Shown here: positions 5,391-10,906 of the stretch, in pieces | How positions within the stretch are numbered: position 1 is the first letter of the stretch | Layout: each line of letters begins with the position of its first letter | Virus record (IMG/VR): IMGVR_UViG_2917398303_000005 | Location: 1 to 29,279 of that record | Direction: 5' to 3' (one strand) | DNA: 29,279 nucleotides | Source: a virus | Lineage: Duplodnaviria > Heunggongvirae > Uroviricota > Caudoviricetes | Position numbers and translations under genes: made by a program | The notes under the pieces: generated by a model | Told to the model about the DNA's origin: nothing | What the model saw: only the letters and a program-made list of their open reading frames with translations | Database searches by the model: none

Positions 5391-5436
5391 CACAGCACCT
5401 TTTTAACACTCAACTTTGTGGGAGGCTACACGACCA

Positions 5437-7710
5437 ATGTTATGGAATCAAAAAGAAAGTCGACAGATGATACATGACGGAGGGGCATTAGATATTACTT
5501 TTGCTTATCCGTGGAATGCTCCACGGTCGGCTATAGCCAGCCCATACCTTACTTACGAGCATCAGCATCGCCGCGACCGTATGTTCGCGGCTTTGCTGCA
5601 TGCGAAAAAGGTGCTTTCTCTCCAGCCCGACTGCGTGCGGTTAGATGTTTATCGCACTGCGGCAGTGCTGGAGCAAAATCAGGGCATTCAACGAGCCAAT
5701 GCCTTTTTGATCAGCTTCTGCAAAAAGGCATTGCCGCGTCTTGAATTGGTCGCAAAAAAATACGAATGCGCGGGCATCAACAGCAAGGTATCAACCTCTG
5801 TTTTTGGAAGTCATTTTGATACCCAGCTTATGCAATATCTGGCCTCACGCATGGTTAATATGGTCGCCCGATATAACCGCCTCCCGGATATGTCGCGCGC
5901 TGATGTTGACCTGTTGGCCGCCGATATTGCTAATTTCATTCGTGGTGAACTTGCCAACATTAATGACCACGGATTCGGCGAGCTTAAAACGCTGTACACC
6001 TGGTATAATCGTGCTGGCTTTATTTCCCTCCAGTTCAACGTTATCCCACCCCATTGGGATCGGGTTGCAAAAAAATATGTCGGCGCGGATGAAATCGCAC
6101 CGGCTATCGCCAAGATGTTTAACGATGGGTGGTGGCGTGGTCGTTTGCGCCGGGTTGCAGCTACATGGCGCGAACACCTGCAAATTGCAGTCGGCAACGT
6201 CAGCAAGAAAAAAAACACCTATGCGAGTAAAAACTGCGTGACTGACTGGCGTGAACAAAAGCGCCGAACTCGTGAATTTCTCAAAGGTCTGGATCTCGAA
6301 GACGAAGACGGCAACCGTATCAGCCTGATTGAAAAATATGATGGCTCAGTTGCTAACCCTGCGATTCGCCGCTGTGAGCTCATGACTCGCATCCGTGGGT
6401 TTGAAAACATCTGTAATGAGCTCGGTTATGTCGGTGAGTTTTACACTCTGACCGCGCCGTCGAAATATCACGCCACGACTAAAGCCGGTTACCGTAACAG
6501 CAAATGGAGCGGTGCCAGCCCGGCTGACACGCAAAACTATCTAACCGGTATCTGGGCGCGTATCCGTGCCAAACTGCATCGGGAAGATGTCCGTATTTTC
6601 GGTATTCGTGTCGCCGAGCCCCATCACGACGGTACTCCACACTGGCACATGCTGATGTTCATGCTGCCGGAAGATGTTGAATATGTTCGCTCCATCGTAC
6701 GTAAATACGCGTGGAAAGAAGACCGCCGCGAACTGAAAAGCGATAAGGCCAAAAAAGCACGTTTCCACGCCGAGTCCATTGACCCGGAGAAAGGCAGCGC
6801 AACCGGCTATGTTGCTAAATACATCTCAAAAAATATCGACGGTTATGCTCTCGATGGTGAAACCGATGATGAAAGTGGTGAACTGCTGAAAGAGACAGCC
6901 CCCGCCGTTTCAGCATGGGCTTCGCGCTGGCACATCCGTCAGTTTCAGTTTATCGGTGGTGCGCCGGTGACGGTTTACCGTGAGTTGCGTCGCCTCGCTG
7001 ATACCGAAACCGCGCACGGACTGAGCGTTGAGTTTGCCGCCGTCCATGATGCCGCCGACGCTGGTGACTGGGCTGGGTATGTTAATGCGCAGGGTGGACC
7101 GTTTGTCCGTCGCGATGATTTACAGGTGCGCACACTGTATGAACCGCGTACCGAGCTTAATCAGTACGGTGAGGAAACGGTATGTATTAAGGGGGTCTAC
7201 GATTCCTCCATAGGTGCAGGGAGCCCGATATTAACCCGACTCACTCAGTGGAAGATTGTTCCGAAGCATGCTGTTGATTTGGCCGTTGACCTTCAGGACG
7301 GCAAAGCCGTCCCTCGGAGTTCTGTCAATAACTGTACGGGAAGCGAAAACGATCCACCGGTACTGGATTTGACAAAGCCCCTGAGTCGACGCGAAAGACG
7401 AGAGCTAACCAACCGACTCAGGAAGCAAAAGCCAGCAGCATGGCGAAAATTCATACACGGAACGGAGGAGCAAAACGCAGCTATAGCGAAAACTATCGAA
7501 GAGATACATCTGACAACCGGCATTAATATCAGCCGGGGCGAAGCTCTGCACTTGATGGCCGGTGGTAAAAGTTGTTTTGATGGTAAATGGCTACGCGGAA
7601 CGGCCAAAGGAGAAATATTTTCCACAGCACCATCGCATGAGGCTAAAGCCAGGAAAATCCTTAATCGTGTTGCTGCGATAGCTGAAGCATCAAAACCAAT
7701 ATCAGACTAA
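5437..7710 (+). CDS. A: replication initiation protein A (rolling-circle HUH endonuclease, P2 gpA-like)
   Basis: About 757 aa from ATG 5437 with RBS GGAGG at 5421-5425. HUH motif TPHWHMLMF and active-site tyrosine motif GYVAKYISKNIDG. Size and position match P2 gpA. Confidence 0.9.
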   Translation: MLWNQKESRQMIHDGGALDITFAYPWNAPRSAIASPYLTYEHQHRRDRMFAALLHAKKVLSLQPDCVRLDVYRTAAVLEQNQGIQRANAFLISFCKKALPRLELVAKKYECAGINSKVSTSVFGSHFDTQLMQYLASRMVNMVARYNRLPDMSRADVDLLAADIANFIRGELANINDHGFGELKTLYTWYNRAGFISLQFNVIPPHWDRVAKKYVGADEIAPAIAKMFNDGWWRGRLRRVAATWREHLQIAVGNVSKKKNTYASKNCVTDWREQKRRTREFLKGLDLEDEDGNRISLIEKYDGSVANPAIRRCELMTRIRGFENICNELGYVGEFYTLTAPSKYHATTKAGYRNSKWSGASPADTQNYLTGIWARIRAKLHREDVRIFGIRVAEPHHDGTPHWHMLMFMLPEDVEYVRSIVRKYAWKEDRRELKSDKAKKARFHAESIDPEKGSATGYVAKYISKNIDGYALDGETDDESGELLKETAPAVSAWASRWHIRQFQFIGGAPVTVYRELRRLADTETAHGLSVEFAAVHDAADAGDWAGYVNAQGGPFVRRDDLQVRTLYEPRTELNQYGEETVCIKGVYDSSIGAGSPILTRLTQWKIVPKHAVDLAVDLQDGKAVPRSSVNNCTGSENDPPVLDLTKPLSRRERRELTNRLRKQKPAAWRKFIHGTEEQNAAIAKTIEEIHLTTGINISRGEALHLMAGGKSCFDGKWLRGTAKGEIFSTAPSHEAKARKILNRVAAIAEASKPISD

Positions 7711-7784
7711 TTTATATCCATATCATGTACATACGACAATCGCCCTATTCGTTTTTTTTCTTCCCATCTTTTACCAATACGTGC

Positions 7785-7804
7785 TACTGTATAAACATAC
7801 AGTA
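7785..7804. promoter_or_regulatory. LexA operator (SOS box) overlapping a candidate promoter
   Basis: TACTGTATAAACATACAGTA is a near-perfect match to the CTGT-N8-ACAG consensus TACTGTATATATATACAGTA. It lies about 20 bp upstream of the RBS/ATG at 7824. A -10-like TATAAA sits inside the box. Confidence 0.75.
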
Positions 7805-7823
7805 ACCCTGTAGGAGGGATTCC

Positions 7824-8006
7824 ATGGTTGACGAACATTTCAGCCGAACGCAGCAAAAGTGGGCTTGTGTGCAATTTATTGCCGAGGTATCTCTGATTGC
7901 AAACTGCAAGCCATCAGACTTAAAGCTCGCGCTCACTCTCATTGCAGACCTAGCAAACAGCGAGAATAACGAAACCGAAGATGATAATTTTTATAAGGCT
8001 GATTAG
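7824..8006 (+). CDS. small SOS-regulated ORF (possible Tum-like antirepressor N-terminal part)
   Basis: 60-aa ORF with RBS AGGAGGG at 7812-7818, directly downstream of the LexA box. It ends at an amber TAG (8004-8006) and is in the same frame as the next ORF. Confidence 0.55.
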   Translation: MVDEHFSRTQQKWACVQFIAEVSLIANCKPSDLKLALTLIADLANSENNETEDDNFYKAD

Positions 8007-8009
8007 ATT

Positions 8010-8240
8010 ATGAGAATCAATATCACGTTGGATAAAGAACAAAAATTAGGGCAACAGATCATTGATGCTTTTCAGAATGAAATAACACATCGAGTACAAT
8101 GCGTTTTTCCTGCAATAAAAGTTAACGTCAAGAAAGGGTCAATGACTAGTGTAGAGGTTATCGGATTCGATAAAGAAGCAGACAAAGAAACATTAAGCGG
8201 CATATTACAAGAGATTTGGGAAGACGATAGCTGGCGTTAA
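8010..8240 (+). CDS. DinI-family protein (DinI-like / Tum C-terminal-like)
   Basis: 76 aa: MRINITLDKEQKLGQQIIDAFQNEITHRVQCVFP…ETLSGILQEIWEDDSWR. This parallels E. coli DinI (MRIEVTIAK…ISEILQETWESADDW) as I recall it. SOS-controlled through the upstream LexA box. Confidence 0.8.
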   Translation: MRINITLDKEQKLGQQIIDAFQNEITHRVQCVFPAIKVNVKKGSMTSVEVIGFDKEADKETLSGILQEIWEDDSWR

Positions 8241-8258
8241 ACATGATAACCGTGTTGG

Positions 8259-8315
8259 CGCAAAAACTAGCTTTTTGCGTCGACGGGGTTGAGTAACGAG
8301 CCCACGAGGCTTTAG
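8259..8315. repeat. repeat unit copy 1: 8-bp-stem hairpin plus conserved 34-mer
   Basis: Hairpin cgcaaaaa/ctagc/tttttgcg at 8259-8279, followed by GACGGGGTTGAGTAACGAGCCCACGAGGCTTTAG at 8282-8315. Matches copy 2 at 8686-8720 at roughly 85% identity by eye. Confidence 0.55.
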
Positions 8316-8439: not shown

Positions 8440-8649
8440 ATGCATCGACTACCAGGTGAAATACCGCAGCACCAGACCAGAAATATTAAGTTAATGGCTA
8501 TCGTTCATCGCCTGCAGCAGATAATGGTCAATGAGAATTTGACACCCGCCGAGCTGGTCGGGTGCGCCGAAATAGTCAGGGATAATTGCGGCAAGCTGGA
8601 TAGCATCAGCAGACCGACAAAATACGCACCTCCACCACGTCGACGATAG
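8440..8649 (+). CDS. hypothetical small protein bracketed by the two repeat units
   Basis: 69-aa ORF with RBS GAGGGTG about 7 nt before ATG 8440. Arg/Pro-rich C-terminus. No recognisable motif. Confidence 0.4.
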   Translation: MHRLPGEIPQHQTRNIKLMAIVHRLQQIMVNENLTPAELVGCAEIVRDNCGKLDSISRPTKYAPPPRRR

Positions 8650-8659
8650 CAAACGTCGT

Positions 8660-8720
8660 CAGCGCTGAAACTCGCTTTCAGTGCTGACGGGGTTGAACAA
8701 CGAGCCCCGCGAGGCGTTAG
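8660..8720. repeat. repeat unit copy 2: 11-bp-stem hairpin plus conserved 35-mer
   Basis: Hairpin cagcgctgaaa/ctcgc/tttcagtgctg at 8660-8686, followed by GACGGGGTTGAACAACGAGCCCCGCGAGGCGTTAG at 8686-8720. It lies between convergent orf69 and orf143 and overlaps the orf143 stop. Confidence 0.55.
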
Positions 8721-9148
8721 CTGGTTACCAGATTGACACCGAGGGTAAGCAGGTTTGTCACCGCACCGGCAATCACTCCCGGCGTCCCGTCTTTCACTGC
8801 ACTGATAATCTTATCGCCCATTGTTTCATTACCGCCGAGCGCCTCGGGCTTTTTGTTAAGCACGGCGAGTGCTTTCTCGGTCAGGCGCACATCATAAAAA
8901 TAGGTCTGGTGGTCTGTTCCGTACTGGATGTAGCCGTTTTCACTGAGAAAAGTGAATGTACCCTCAACCACACTACGCAACTGATTCAGTGCGTTCATTT
9001 CTGGTGAGTTAAGTTGTTCAAAGTAGTCATCAGGTAGCGCGGCGTTAAATTTTTCGTAAGTAATGACCTGTGGCACCGGGAAGTTATCCCATAACACCGC
9101 AAAAACTTCCGCCGTCTGCTGGTTAAATAATTCGAGGTTTTTGGACAT
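8717..9148 (-). CDS. hypothetical accessory protein, reverse-oriented cargo gene at the P2 tin/old position
   Basis: 143-aa ORF with RBS AAGGGA about 8 nt upstream on the minus strand. Soluble-looking N-terminal ~110 aa plus a Gly-rich hydrophobic C-terminal tail (GTPGVIAGAVTNLLTLGVNLV). Opposite in orientation to the flanking genes. Confidence 0.6.
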   Translation of the reverse strand: MSKNLELFNQQTAEVFAVLWDNFPVPQVITYEKFNAALPDDYFEQLNSPEMNALNQLRSVVEGTFTFLSENGYIQYGTDHQTYFYDVRLTEKALAVLNKKPEALGGNETMGDKIISAVKDGTPGVIAGAVTNLLTLGVNLVTS

Positions 9149-9206
9149 GCATAATTCCCTTTCATCGATAGACCCGTTTGCCGATTGGGCAAAAAAGCTG
9201 ACTGTA

Positions 9207-9338
9207 ATGGCATCGAATAACGACCTGAGTTCTCGCGAGGTGGAAAGCTACACCGCAAAAATGGTCGACCAAGCCAGTAAAGATGAGCTTACGGTCGTTA
9301 TAAAACACCTGTTAAACCACATCAGAATGCACAAATAA
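9207..9338 (+). CDS. possible small ORF divergent from orf143
   Basis: In-frame ATGs at 9147 and 9207 within the 9063-9338 ORF; no convincing RBS. The 9147 start would overlap the orf143 start codon back to back. Protein from 9207: MASNNDLSSREVESYTAKMVDQASKDELTVVIKHLLNHIRMHK. Confidence 0.3.
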   Translation: MASNNDLSSREVESYTAKMVDQASKDELTVVIKHLLNHIRMHK

Positions 9339-9664
9339 AAGGATCTATATCAATATGTTATCTCTCGTTTATGAAAATCCGTGGACGACGATTTTTCTGC
9401 TGATTGTTGCCAGTATGTGCCTCAATAGTGTTATTGGCGCATTGCGCGGCCAGTAATCGCGACAAAACCAGACCCAAACCGGCACCCTGAATGCCGGTTT
9501 TTTTATGCCATTTTCCCGCGATTTCCCCGTTTTTTAGCCGTGCATGCAACAGGTGCATGGTTTTGCATGCGTCGGGGTTGCCCGTTCTGGTCGTGCGCCG
9601 CCAGTGCTGGCGCGGATTCAGAGTGGTCATGCAACTGCATTAAAACCGACCCATAAAGCGGGCA

Positions 9665-9683
9665 GGCGTGGCGGGGAAAGCAT
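9665..9683. other. cos site, 19-nt cohesive-end sequence (186-type)
   Basis: GGCGTGGCGGGGAAAGCAT matches my recollection of the phage 186 cohesive end (P2: GGCGAGGCGGGGAAAGCAC). It is where cos is expected, between the accessory locus and portal gene Q. Confidence 0.55.
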
Positions 9684-9859: not shown

Positions 9860-10906
9860 TTATTCCGGGTTGTCTAGGGTGTACTCTTTGAATCTGATGA
9901 CCTCCATGCCGAGCCAGTCGTTTACCTCCCTGAACCTGTCCTGCAGGGGTGACAGCTCATTACGAACGAATACCTTTGCTACCTTCTCAACGTCACCGAG
10001 TGAACCGATATTCTCGGGCTTGCCGCCCATGAGCTGGAACGGTACGCGGTGCGCGTCCATCAGGTCGGCGGCACTGGCTTTCTTGATGTTGAAAAAGTCA
10101 TCCTTTGTGGCTACCTCGCTTAGTGGCACGATTTTGATGCCGTCCGGTTTTCCACCAGGAGCGTAGAAAAACAGGTTCTTAAAGTTGCCGAGCCCTTTTG
10201 AGTTGCGCATCGCCTCGCGCAGCGATTCGACGTCGGTCGCGCTCTGTGCCGGGTCGGTCACATACATGATGTAACCTGCATGCGCGCCGTTCTGGTAATA
10301 CTTGCGGCGGAACAGTGTCGCGGATTCATTCAGCCAGGCGGAATTAAGCGCGCTGAGATATTCGGGCAGACCGTAAATCTCCTGATTAATATCGGGCTCC
10401 AGCAGGTGAAACACGGTATTAGGGGCGAACTCGTGAGGCTGAGTGAAGTTTTCCACAAACCAGAAAATCGAATCGTCGACCCCGCGGCGGGTGTATTTGG
10501 CCGGTGAAGCCAGTAGCTTGATTAACCGGCCGGTGACGCTGTGGCGCTGCTCAAGAAAGGCGTTGCCGAATACCAGATAGTCGAGCGCAAAGCGGCTGAA
10601 ATCCTGACGTGACAGAAGCGGGTGTGGAATGTAGGTGCTCGCGAGCACGTTGCGTTTAACGTAAATCGGCGAGCTGTGATGTACGGCAGAGCGAAGGCTC
10701 TTTGCCAGTCCGGAAAAGCTGACCGGCGGCTCGTACCATTTGCCGTTACTGATGCACTCAACGTAATCCAAAATATCGCGCTTATCGAGTACCGGCACAG
10801 GCTCACCGAAGGTGAACGCTGTCGTTTTTGGTGGTGCGCTGGCGGTTAGTTGTTGTGGCTTGCTGGCCTTCTGCGCAGCGGCTTTACGGGATTTTTGTTT
10901 ACCCAT
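9860..10906 (-). CDS. Q: portal protein (P2 gpQ-like)
   Basis: 348 aa. MGKQKSRKAAAQKASKPQQLTASAPPKTTAFTFGEPVPVLDKRDILDYVEC… closely parallels P2 gpQ in sequence and size. Adjacent to cos and co-oriented with terminase. Confidence 0.9.
   Translation of the reverse strand: MGKQKSRKAAAQKASKPQQLTASAPPKTTAFTFGEPVPVLDKRDILDYVECISNGKWYEPPVSFSGLAKSLRSAVHHSSPIYVKRNVLASTYIPHPLLSRQDFSRFALDYLVFGNAFLEQRHSVTGRLIKLLASPAKYTRRGVDDSIFWFVENFTQPHEFAPNTVFHLLEPDINQEIYGLPEYLSALNSAWLNESATLFRRKYYQNGAHAGYIMYVTDPAQSATDVESLREAMRNSKGLGNFKNLFFYAPGGKPDGIKIVPLSEVATKDDFFNIKKASAADLMDAHRVPFQLMGGKPENIGSLGDVEKVAKVFVRNELSPLQDRFREVNDWLGMEVIRFKEYTLDNPE

Follow-up and report, generated by a model that had tools for sequence, protein, structure and literature searches.

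The window, by which we mean the whole stretch of 29,279 nucleotides of DNA from a 186/P2-like prophage analysed here, carries a mobile two-gene cassette in the interval between replication gene A and cos. One gene encodes an acidic winged-helix protein of 143 aa and runs antisense within an SOS operon; the other encodes a protein of 63 aa, runs with the operon, and overlaps the first at the start codon. Our best, and tentative, interpretation is that the lysogen makes a protein for exclusion or for blocking assembly, and that the second gene supplies its antidote in the lytic phase. The features on which the argument draws are as follows.

5416-7710 (+): replication endonuclease gene A, 764 aa, bounding the hotspot on the left; homologous regions carry the annotation replication endonuclease
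7785-7804 (no strand): LexA box TACTGTATAAACATACAGTA at the p95-type SOS promoter, a perfect match
7824-8006 (+): 60-aa ORF that opens the SOS operon, phrog_1993 (E 1.8e-31), at the position of PSP3 tumA
8010-8240 (+): DinI-like (TumB-like) protein, PF06183 DinI (E 2.2e-18), phrog_189
8258-8303 (+): hairpin and conserved 3' box, first copy of direct repeat D1, from a repeat search
8440-8649 (+): 69-aa ORF of unknown function, full-length match to phrog_11386 (E 5.7e-45)
8662-8707 (+): hairpin and box, second copy of D1, 78% identical to the first, abutting the 3' end of the 143-aa gene
8717-9148 (-): 143-aa gene, candidate lysogeny-expressed effector, phrog_2266, antisense within the SOS operon
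9147-9338 (+): 63-aa three-helix partner, candidate counter-factor, phrog_2454, sense with the SOS operon
9355-9456 (+): ORF of a 33-aa hydrophobic (single-TM-like) peptide, last gene before the terminator
9476-9500 (+): intrinsic terminator with a 9-bp stem and T-run, homologue of 186 t95b, with whose annotated sequence it aligns
9665-9683 (no strand): cos cohesive end GGCGTGGCGGGGAAAGCAT, from the linear records of 186, PSP3 and SEN1
9860-10906 (-): portal protein Q, 348 aa, bounding the hotspot on the right; homologous loci carry the annotation phage portal protein

The two genes and their operon

The 143-aa gene is real. As the original prediction stated, it is a reverse-oriented ORF with its own ribosome-binding site: in the ORF list of the window it opens with an ATG, and the Shine-Dalgarno sequence AAGGGA lies 5-6 nt upstream. 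The protein matches phrog_2266 over its full length (residues 1-142 against profile positions 1-143 of 144, E 4e-60), and distant relatives from Pseudomonas, lambdoid and P2-like phages match the same profile at E 1e-32 to 1e-40. Close homologues form 72 clusters, and an exhaustive profile search extends the family to at least 752 clusters at 50% identity. The partner aligns end to end with phrog_2454 (1-63 against 1-64 of 64, E 2.7e-39), and homologues of 192-195 nt are annotated in RefSeq and GenBank records. Judged by these matches, both predicted genes lie far beyond chance. Because all 63 residues align, the partner starts at the ATG at 9147; the small divergent ORF foreseen earlier is thus a gene, beginning at what had been the alternative start and not at 9207.

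The operon around the pair can be delimited from known elements. The LexA box is the only site in the window that fits CTGT-N8-ACAG with 0 mismatches, and in phage 186 the corresponding position is occupied by p95 with a LexA site. The PSP3 region that matches the beginning of the operon is annotated tumA and tumB. At the other end, the t95b homologue marks the end of the p95 SOS transcript. On this evidence the operon is of the LexA-controlled p95/tum type, extending from 7773 to the t95b-like terminator at 9500, and the LexA box and the terminator frame the antisense 143-aa gene together with its sense partner. Two further small genes of the operon recur elsewhere. The 69-aa ORF is annotated in SW9, E66 and CX21. 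At least 25 loci, SW9, CX21 and O157:H7 FRIK944 among them, have a conserved 33-aa peptide that varies by conservative substitutions; it is also annotated in Klebsiella phage ST147-VIM1phi7.1. The first D1 copy is a candidate weak terminator or cassette junction. Beyond the operon, cos is located by three linear phage records (186, PSP3 and SEN1), all of which stop at query position 1965, corresponding to 9664 in the window.

Scans of six local proteins against Pfam, NCBIfam and PADLOC gave no match for the 143-aa protein or its partner. With PADLOC-DB v2 there were 0 matches at E<=1 for the six proteins and likewise 0 for 46 members of the phrog_2266 family. The earlier remark that no family could be recognised therefore holds for Pfam, NCBIfam and PADLOC and fails for the PHROGs, where the family exists as phrog_2266. 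The PHROG entry is of unknown function, no annotated function was found for members of the family, and a literature search by accession or PHROG id gave no match. The 143-aa gene goes unmentioned in the BTP5 transcriptome paper. Two suggested identities were set aside. A likeness to T7 gp5.5/gp5.7, recorded in a GenBank note for Midge (HHpred 91%), was not reproduced by hhalign (0.2% and 1.1%), a weak test with single-sequence templates; the overlapping exclusion genes of Fc02 lie at a different locus.

An accessory cassette in the gpA-gpQ hotspot

The gpA-gpQ hotspot of P2-like prophages is documented for anti-phage cargo (Rousset et al. 2022, PMC9122126). The 143-aa gene lies where it had been placed, adjacent to cos, with gene A on one side and portal gene Q on the other. 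It is present in 10 of 50,697 phage records and in about 94 of 5,426 E. coli genomes, and is therefore accessory. When the locus was compared across related prophages its occupancy proved variable, and the gene is absent from 186 and PSP3; neither the 143-aa gene nor the partner is core. The cargo beside the 143-aa gene also changes, from HTH and RT genes in O157:H7 and Klebsiella to a Lactamase_B/ComEC-like gene in strain 144 and tum/DinI in the window.

Two homologues, WP_000042038 and WP_001752367, are listed as 'hypothetical' in Table S5 of the hotspot survey (Rousset et al. 2022, PMC9122126). The survey catalogues them under that label only and did not include them among its tested systems, and no catalogued defence family in PADLOC-DB v2 is matched, so that the description of the locus as an undescribed defence candidate still applies. 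We also considered whether the window locus could be the validated three-gene P2 system with 'no clear domain' (PMC9122126), and rejected this, as the protein strings are absent from the tested-system tables.

The slot itself, between tum or gene A and t95b/cos, is shared with 186 Orf97 and P2 Old/Tin. Old and Tin exclude other phages (PMC9122126), and the 186 record carries the annotation that plasmid expression of Orf97 blocks 186 infection. In contrast to the 143-aa protein, Old and Tin are either large enzymes or poisons of ssDNA-binding protein, while Orf97, with 243 aa and encoded on the sense strand of the p95 operon, is unrelated to it. None of the three has an overlapping counter-gene such as that of the window pair.

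An acidic winged-helix protein

AlphaFold2 models the 143-aa protein with high confidence (pTM 0.84) as a winged-helix domain followed by a C-terminal helical hairpin. Its net charge is -8, and acidity is a property of the whole family, in which 97% of 143 phrog_2266 members are net negative (median -6). The fold is shared with MarR/PadR/Rrf2-like wHTH regulators, whereas a family-level sequence signature is absent from the 143-aa protein: no Pfam HTH family reached threshold, and sequence searches of the PDB, whether started from the protein alone or from the profile of its family, gave weak MarR and YjcQ matches at best (profile E ~0.1). Unlike MarR/PadR-type and kleisin/KITE-type winged helices, the protein is acidic, without a basic recognition helix, and carries the additional C-terminal hairpin.

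Taken together, the fold and the acidic family profile suggest that the protein binds other proteins rather than DNA. Its winged helix could also belong to a transcription factor that represses or activates the partner and 33-aa genes or another phage or host promoter. Such a protein would serve as an accessory lysis-lysogeny regulator, with the partner as its target or anti-repressor. Given the acidity and the lack of a basic recognition helix, we consider this rather unlikely.

The original prediction described a soluble N-terminal domain with a Gly-rich hydrophobic tail, which is accurate for the window sequence, and suggested a membrane-acting effector on this basis. The tail, GVIAGAVTNLLTLGVNLVT, is strongly conserved in the enterobacterial clade, and its best 19-residue Kyte-Doolittle mean (KD19; residues 124-142) is 1.57, a borderline value just below the usual threshold of 1.6. 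Pseudomonas homologues share the slot between tail chaperone and tape-measure gene with the membrane Sie moron gp15 of HK97. Elsewhere in the family, however, the tail has a different character. In most of 46 distant phrog_2266 members, the last 35 aa carry 4-11 charged residues and the equivalent helix, itself charged, has a KD19 of 0.8-1.3, so that conservation of the hydrophobic tail as a transmembrane anchor is unlikely. In the AlphaFold2 model, residues 110-142 form the helical hairpin with pLDDT 87-94, and we read this hairpin as part of the compact predicted fold. If the locus has a membrane component, the 33-aa peptide would be the better candidate. A membrane-anchored abortive-infection or superinfection-exclusion effector that acts through the Gly-rich hydrophobic C-terminal tail is thus highly improbable.

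Overlapping start codons and antisense orientation

The ATGs of the 143-aa gene and its partner overlap by 2 nt in the CATG at 9146-9149. The same arrangement recurs widely in the family, in loci that are phylogenetically non-independent: the partner ATG stands at offset +1 from the effector start in 43 of 43 related enterobacterial loci (IMG/VR), and among 78 distant loci there are 50 in which the same CATG opens a 66-89-aa ORF that belongs to another family, phrog_25421. The two ATGs also overlap in strain 144. Sense-strand ORFs that overlap phrog_2266 start codons are 63-89 aa long overall, and for comparison, any opposite-strand ORF is found at that place in only 18.8% of other ORFs. Homology between the enterobacterial partner (phrog_2454) and the widespread partner family (phrog_25421) is not detectable. 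About a third of phrog_2266 loci are without a recognisable partner, and the presence of a partner shows no association with gene orientation (Fisher p = 0.5).

The family occurs in P2-like, lambdoid and Mu-like phages of Gammaproteobacteria and Betaproteobacteria, with prophages of Salmonella, E. coli including O157:H7, Klebsiella, Enterobacter and Pseudomonas among its hosts. Its genes sit at terL gpA/portal, at Q/endolysin, after gpD or gpV, and at lysis genes/Nu1-cos. Antisense orientation to the lytic operon is usual across P2-like, lambdoid and other phages, and in 59 of 71 phrog_2266 loci, again not independent of one another, the effector is convergent with its downstream neighbour. 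Roughly 17% of the loci are co-directional with their neighbours; in Pseudomonas Mu-like prophages, for example, the gene is flanked by those for the tail chaperone and the tape measure and runs in the sense direction. Antisense morons as such are common in prophages and have many functions. Many phrog_2266 genes adjoin packaging genes, at cos/portal in the window and at Nu1/cos or terL-gpW-portal elsewhere, which makes a packaging target conceivable.

This distribution also bears on the possibility that the 143-aa protein is an anti-defence or host-takeover protein. As a small acidic inhibitor, and possibly a DNA mimic, it would then act on a host factor of immunity or repair, and the partner would be an unrelated gene of the SOS operon. 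To be small, acidic and accessory is typical of Ocr, gp5.9 and Acr-type inhibitors, and the 143-aa protein is all three, its acidity being family-wide. In Pseudomonas Mu-like prophages the gene is co-oriented with late genes, and in 186-like phages it sits in an operon that deals with RecA/LexA (tum, DinI). The prevailing antisense orientation, however, favours expression in the prophage over expression during infection, when anti-defence is needed. Moreover, the recurrent start-codon overlap argues for a functional coupling of effector and partner, and the modelled winged helix is compact, without the elongated shape of a DNA mimic. An anti-defence role is therefore improbable.

The partner is predicted to form three helices (AlphaFold2, pLDDT 79). 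In SW9 and CX21 it is kept, although the 143-aa gene is internally deleted so that its first 19 and last 3 codons remain; the second D1 copy is also kept and adjoins the deletion scar. Retention of the partner after loss of the effector is behaviour that would be expected of an antidote gene. The partner had been proposed as a possible regulator. Its orientation with the SOS operon (with the late operon in other phages) and its persistence when the 143-aa gene is deleted speak against this, and it looks more like a lytic-phase counter-factor.

The same deletions weigh on a reading of the locus as a lysogenic-conversion or addiction module. Here, the winged-helix protein would modulate the host, or the pair would be a toxin-antitoxin-like cassette in which the 33-aa peptide or the partner is toxic and the antisense gene restrains it. 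Since the two genes overlap head to head, the 5' regions of their mRNAs would be antisense to each other, as is known from SOS-linked type I toxin-antitoxin loci. The partner is followed by the conserved 33-aa hydrophobic peptide, and the operon is LexA-controlled. Non-defence cargo, such as partition systems, fills about a quarter of P2-like hotspots (PMC9122126). Nevertheless, SW9, a viable phage, and CX21 have lost the 143-aa gene and keep both partner and peptide, so that this gene is no essential antidote to them. The winged-helix family is also widespread without either small gene, and there were 0 toxin-antitoxin matches in PADLOC or NCBIfam. We regard a module of this kind as distinctly unlikely.

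Comparison with self-immune prophage defences

To our knowledge, only a handful of self-immune prophage defences are known (Tai/Ati, Tab/anti-Tab, TerI and BstA), each of them found phage by phage. In layout, the window pair matches self-immune prophage defences generally, and in particular Tai/Ati, Tab/anti-Tab and TerI, for which the arrangement has been established by experiment.

The closest parallels are with phage phi80, in which taiEcA (orf63) and atiEcA (orf64), named for tail assembly inhibition, form part of a non-contiguous operon next to cos and lie head to head with a 20-nt overlap (He et al. 2024, PMC11364771). Tai blocks the assembly of tails by infecting phages and is bound by Ati. 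Like the window pair as interpreted here, Tai/Ati combines a defence gene directed against the lytic operon with an adjacent sense counter-gene whose 5' end overlaps it, and lies beside cos, upstream of the packaging module. Both pairs are morons found in many phages, including in cos-proximal hotspots, and in both, the defence gene (in the window pair, the candidate effector) can be lost with the counter-gene kept; phi80 mutants without ati escaped through inactivation of tai (PMC11364771). The proteins show no detectable relationship in sequence. Using single-sequence templates, hhalign gave probabilities of 0.45% for the 143-aa protein against orf63 (TaiEcA) and 0.18% for the 63-aa partner against orf64 (AtiEcA). 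The phi80 proteins belong to PHROGs 5483/20632 and the window pair to 2266/2454, TaiEcA has 204 aa, as opposed to the 143-aa winged-helix protein, and Tai/Ati is embedded in the Q late operon, whereas the window pair lies in a LexA-controlled p95 SOS operon.

In Pseudomonas phage JBD26, Tab/anti-Tab are gp31/gp30 (Patel et al. 2024, PMC10884400). Tab is a small prophage protein whose gene has a promoter of its own and runs opposite to the late (terminase) operon in which it lies, and anti-Tab, the product of the adjacent sense-strand gene, binds and neutralises Tab in the phage's own lytic cycle (PMC10884400). The window shares this combination of a small opposite-strand gene in a lytic operon with an adjacent small sense gene. 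However, tab and atab, of 83 aa each, overlap tail to tail and the window pair head to head; the genomic locations differ, as do the PHROGs (phrog_14530/13614 for Tab/anti-Tab), and the sequences are unrelated, the hhalign probability of the 143-aa protein against Tab being 0.29%. Tab homologues are confined to close relatives of JBD26, whereas phrog_2266 extends over at least 752 clusters.

Prophage defences with cognate self-immunity also include TerI/anti-TerI (TERi) of Listeria phage phi10403S (bioRxiv 10.1101/2025.02.27.640495) and BstA/aba of Salmonella BTP1, both of which block a late step while lysis proceeds. Compared by description, they differ from the window pair in host and protein. 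In BstA, self-immunity is conferred by a DNA element, not a protein.

Proposed mechanism and implications

From this architecture we infer the timing of expression, a neutralisation between proteins, an anti-phage phenotype and a target. In the prophage state, the 143-aa acidic winged-helix protein would be made from its own promoter, its gene opposing the lytic-phase transcription unit. A search of the partner ORF for a sigma-70 promoter that could serve the gene yielded no convincing consensus. The protein would act through binding another protein rather than DNA, and the likeliest target may be a virion-assembly or DNA-packaging component of the incoming phage, which would then yield no infectious progeny. 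Upon prophage induction, the transcript from the SOS promoter (from a late promoter in other phages) would cross the 143-aa gene in antisense and damp its expression. The same lytic transcript would yield the 63-aa partner, which could neutralise effector already made, so that the phage's own lytic cycle would be spared.

A more general proposal is possible but somewhat more doubtful. In this model, phrog_2266 and its overlapping partner (phrog_2454 in Enterobacteria, phrog_25421 elsewhere) would form an unrecognised, widespread prophage late-block immunity with self-immunity. The acidic winged-helix protein would bind a packaging or assembly protein of the invader, the antidote would be made only on lytic read-through, and the CATG would enforce either-or expression.

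If our interpretation of the pair is false, the conserved overlapping-start architecture still needs explaining. If it is true, it would add to the self-immune defences a family that is unrelated to them in sequence and far more widespread. It would also provide a genomic signature for finding more such systems, namely a small antisense gene in a lytic operon together with a sense ORF that shares its start codon. Recurrent 'hypothetical' genes of the catalogued P2 hotspot would be explained, and partner-only phages such as SW9 would be carriers of a ready-made counter-defence.

The gene pair and its surroundings

The prophage is 186-like, and in its right arm the slot between replication gene A and portal gene Q contains the following features.

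Features of the slot (window coordinates)
5416-7710: replication gene A, left of the SOS region
7785-7804: perfect LexA box TACTGTATAAACATACAGTA, the sole zero-mismatch site in the window
60-aa ORF: phrog_1993, counterpart of tumA in the split tumA/tumB of PSP3
76-aa DinI-like gene: PF06183, counterpart of PSP3 tumB
8258-8303: hairpin-plus-box copy 1, hairpin at 8258-8280
69-aa ORF: phrog_11386, between the two hairpin-plus-box copies
8662-8707: hairpin-plus-box copy 2, 78% identical to copy 1
8717..9148, minus strand: 143-aa ORF, ATG start, AAGGGA upstream
From ATG 9147, plus strand: 63-aa partner ORF, phrog_2454 match end to end (E 2.7e-39)
9355-9456, plus strand: 33-aa hydrophobic peptide ORF, conserved in relatives
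9476-9500: strong intrinsic terminator, aligning with annotated 186 t95b
9665-9683: cos cohesive end; window 9664 is where the linear records of 186, PSP3 and SEN1 stop
9860-10906: portal gene Q, right of cos

The predicted 143-aa reverse gene with its own ribosome-binding site was confirmed. The small divergent ORF proved genuine as well, but the end-to-end phrog_2454 alignment places its start at 9147, originally offered as an alternative, rather than at 9207. Homologues of the partner are annotated at 63-64 aa in public records. The start codons of both genes share the tetranucleotide CATG (9146-9149), so that the ribosome-binding site of each gene lies inside the other. The 143-aa protein had been assigned to no family; this holds for Pfam, NCBIfam and PADLOC, which returned no match, but not for PHROG, where the match to phrog_2266 covers it from end to end (E 4e-60). 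The pair belongs to phrog_2266 and phrog_2454, which are PHROGs without known function, and to the class of P2 hotspot cargo.

In phage 186, the p95 SOS transcript is annotated as beginning with tum and ending at t95b, with the partial terminator t95a and orf97 in between. By this layout, the 143-aa gene lies backwards within a p95-type SOS unit, in which the partner and the 33-aa peptide are oriented forward; we infer that transcription actually reads through along this unit. Its start (7773-8240) comprises a p95-type SOS promoter with the perfect LexA box, followed by a Tum split into the 60-aa ORF and the 76-aa DinI-like protein. The same split is found in PSP3, whereas Tum of 186 is one 146-aa protein.

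The 69-aa ORF cassette is bracketed by a 46-nt direct repeat (8258-8303 and 8662-8707), each copy consisting of a GC hairpin and then GACGGGGTTGA..AACGAGCCC. Copy 2 directly adjoins the 143-aa gene at its 3' end and is kept beside a deletion scar in SW9 and CX21. The repeat is not homologous to 186 t95a and may act as a weak terminator in both directions or as a junction where cassettes are exchanged by recombination. A 90-aa ORF (9358-9630, minus strand) has an odd composition and lies opposite the 33-aa ORF, cos-proximal sequence and the t95b-like terminator. It is listed as hypothetical in phage Midge (CPTMidge_047), with a shorter version in RefSeq E. coli records, and is probably a spurious gene call.

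Conservation of the arrangement

With a cutoff of E<=1e-3, an exhaustive profile search for phrog_2266 gave 752 clusters (at 50% identity), of which 139 also passed E<=1e-10; almost all are 125-160 aa long and match from end to end. No member has a Pfam or PADLOC assignment, and all members tested fall into phrog_2266.

Genomic contexts of the phrog_2266 family
Pseudomonas and Stutzerimonas Mu-like prophages: between tail chaperone and tape-measure gene
Shewanella lambdoid prophage: upstream of lysis genes
Lambda-like phage: between Rz and Nu1/cos
P2-like phage: after gpD
IMG/VR contigs: terminase gpA-portal; Q-endolysin; after gpV or gpD; near the sheath gene

At 59 of 71 loci the family gene converges with a large gene on its 3' side and is therefore usually antisense to a lytic operon. 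A 63-66-aa partner occurs at offset +1 in 43/43 enterobacterial IMG/VR loci, and a 66-89-aa ORF starts at the same CATG (or an abutting CATATG) in 50/78 distant loci, although the loci counted are not independent samples. As a control, of the remaining long ORFs at these loci, 18.8% have any opposite-strand ATG-ORF of at least 45 aa within 12 nt. The distant partners form one mutually homologous family, phrog_25421 (motif Q-L-x-G-x-M-D-W-V-R-A-R-x-Y-W...L-A-E-A-L, with a C-terminal Cys cluster in some members), which has no detectable relationship to the enterobacterial partner. The conserved feature is the arrangement rather than any single partner sequence. About one third of family loci have no recognisable partner, and partner presence does not correlate with gene orientation across loci.

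Among the related loci retrieved for comparison (L-numbers, with locus-relative coordinates), L072, L074, L076, L096, L107 and L121 carry phrog_25421 partners upstream of the family gene. Many such partners end Cys-rich (e.g. PRCQCHCCRHC or WTCPVCGRK), which suggests a small zinc-binding or redox-sensitive tail; the enterobacterial partner has no such tail. In the lambda-like contigs L112, L128 and L131, between terL and portal, the family gene and a gpW-like head-tail joining gene (MSFTQKHL...RLYHGGKG) are arranged head to head, and a dedicated partner is lacking; these phages either tolerate the protein or use an unrecognised antidote. Shewanella members have, in place of a head-to-head partner, a conserved same-strand ORF of ~106-115 aa after the family gene (L013 7126-8823, L018 8001-8819), which may be an alternative partner type; one Shewanella genome encodes a DUF2726 protein upstream.

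Accessory status and variable neighbours

Comparison of relatives bore out the proposal that the 143-aa gene is accessory and not core. Of 50,697 phage records, only 10 gave a tblastn match to the protein, these being Midge, FSLSP004 and prophage-derived Klebsiella phages; the gene is missing from PSP3, and in 186 the slot holds orf97 instead. The pair region is present in 94 of 5,426 complete E. coli genomes (megablast), with both genes at >=80% coverage in 56 of the 94. In SW9 and E. coli CX21, a ~365-bp internal deletion has removed all of the 143-aa gene except codons 1-19 and the final 3 codons with the stop, while the partner and the 33-aa ORF are intact. The gene is thus dispensable for a viable phage and outlived by its partner. 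This deletion speaks against a non-defence moron or a toxin-antitoxin-like module with the 33-aa peptide, which we consider rather unlikely.

The cassette is invariably the final unit ahead of cos, and the cargo on its other side varies: HTH and reverse transcriptase genes in O157:H7 FRIK944 and Klebsiella ST147-VIM1phi7.1, a metallo-beta-lactamase/ComEC-like gene in strain 144, and tum/DinI in E. coli E66, as in the window. Strain 144 has a diverged, unannotated partner at the overlapping ATG. In Rousset et al. (PMC9122126) these proteins appear only as 'hypothetical' parts of hotspot arrangements, outside the tested systems. The cassette directly adjoins the HTH and reverse transcriptase genes (L007 2619-3855 in FRIK944, L002 4571-5807 in ST147-VIM1phi7.1); the transcriptase is RVT_1 in Rousset Table S5, and read-through from its operon would be antisense to the 143-aa gene and sense to the partner. 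E66 (NZ_CM173951.1, L004 5091-6670), with the same right arm, has extra cargo between the cos region and portal, encoding a 249-aa hypothetical protein and a P-loop NTPase family protein; cos separates this cargo from the cassette.

Fold, charge and the C-terminal tail

The AlphaFold2 model of the 143-aa protein (26-sequence alignment; pLDDT 90.1, pTM 0.84) confidently predicts a winged helix and, C-terminal to it, a helical hairpin (H3-22, E27-30, H31-34, H49-70, E74-78, E83-89, H91-98, H110-120, H123-142). The protein is acidic (net -8, pI 4.46), and 97% of 143 distinct family members are net negative (median -6), which speaks for binding to other proteins and against a DNA-binding regulator of the classical type. 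Regulation of the divergent genes by a winged-helix protein would suit the fold and the gene arrangement, but is unlikely in view of this acidity, a distribution independent of the partner and the absence of any conserved target. An acidic inhibitor serving anti-defence or host takeover is harder to reconcile with the antisense orientation, and we judge it quite unlikely. The regulator (wHTH) label in the Midge record is based solely on the fold, and its HHpred link to T7 gp5.5/5.7 could not be reproduced. The 63-aa partner is predicted to form a three-helix bundle (pLDDT 79), for which a fold search gave no informative match.

A membrane mechanism through the C-terminal tail, as in the original prediction, has to be revised. 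In enterobacterial members the segment GVIAGAVTNLLTLGVNLVT shows strong conservation, and it reaches a Kyte-Doolittle mean of 1.57, but the equivalent helix is amphipathic and charged in most distant relatives. A conserved membrane anchor is therefore improbable, and a membrane effector very unlikely. The 33-aa peptide MLSLVYENPWTTIFLLIVASMCLNSVIGALRGQ, encoded between the partner and the t95b-like terminator and beyond the originally predicted module, is hydrophobic and single-TM-like, with conservative substitutions across at least 25 related loci, including phages without the 143-aa gene. It is the better candidate for any membrane activity at the locus.

Resemblance to self-immune prophage defences

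The cassette shares three elements of its layout with experimentally established prophage defences with cognate self-immunity: a small gene antisense within a lytic or SOS operon, presumably with its own promoter, an adjacent small gene on the sense strand, and a place beside packaging functions or cos. In phi80, taiEcA (orf63) interrupts the Q-dependent late operon, to which atiEcA (orf64) belongs, an arrangement termed a 'non-contiguous operon'; lysogens produce Tai, which stops tail assembly of invaders, Ati is a lytic-cycle product that counteracts Tai, and mutants without ati survive through tai inactivation (PMC11364771). The phi80 record (JX871397; L153 3366-4191) places orf63 (204 aa) on the minus strand and orf64 (76 aa) on the plus strand in a head-to-head arrangement with a 20-nt overlap, within a few hundred bases of cos; it annotates orf64 as 'putative Fur-regulated protein'. 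Such 5'-end overlap may be a general hallmark of defence/antidote pairs. Listeria TerI/anti-TerI follows the same scheme with terminase as target (bioRxiv 10.1101/2025.02.27.640495). Tai/Ati and Tab/anti-Tab resemble the cassette in genetic design; however, it falls outside both families (hhalign probability <1%, distinct PHROGs).

On the strength of this matching layout, we tentatively propose that the 143-aa protein would be an exclusion factor expressed in lysogeny and acting by protein binding, and the 63-aa protein its antidote in the lytic phase, here SOS-induced. Antisense read-through and the common start region would further favour expression of one gene or the other, not both. The SW9-type deletion, with the effector gone and the antidote retained, fits this proposal, as does orf97, another infection-blocking gene, in the same slot of 186. 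Timing, binding, phenotype and target are all inferred, and we place the proposal as a whole somewhat below an even chance.

Taken together, a candidate undescribed defence or exclusion module remains a reasonable but unproven description of the locus, in which the role of the partner, first seen as a possible regulator, needs revision. Chief among the new findings is that this pair exemplifies a two-gene cassette that is both widespread and conserved, and that shares its layout with a type of prophage immunity recognised only recently.
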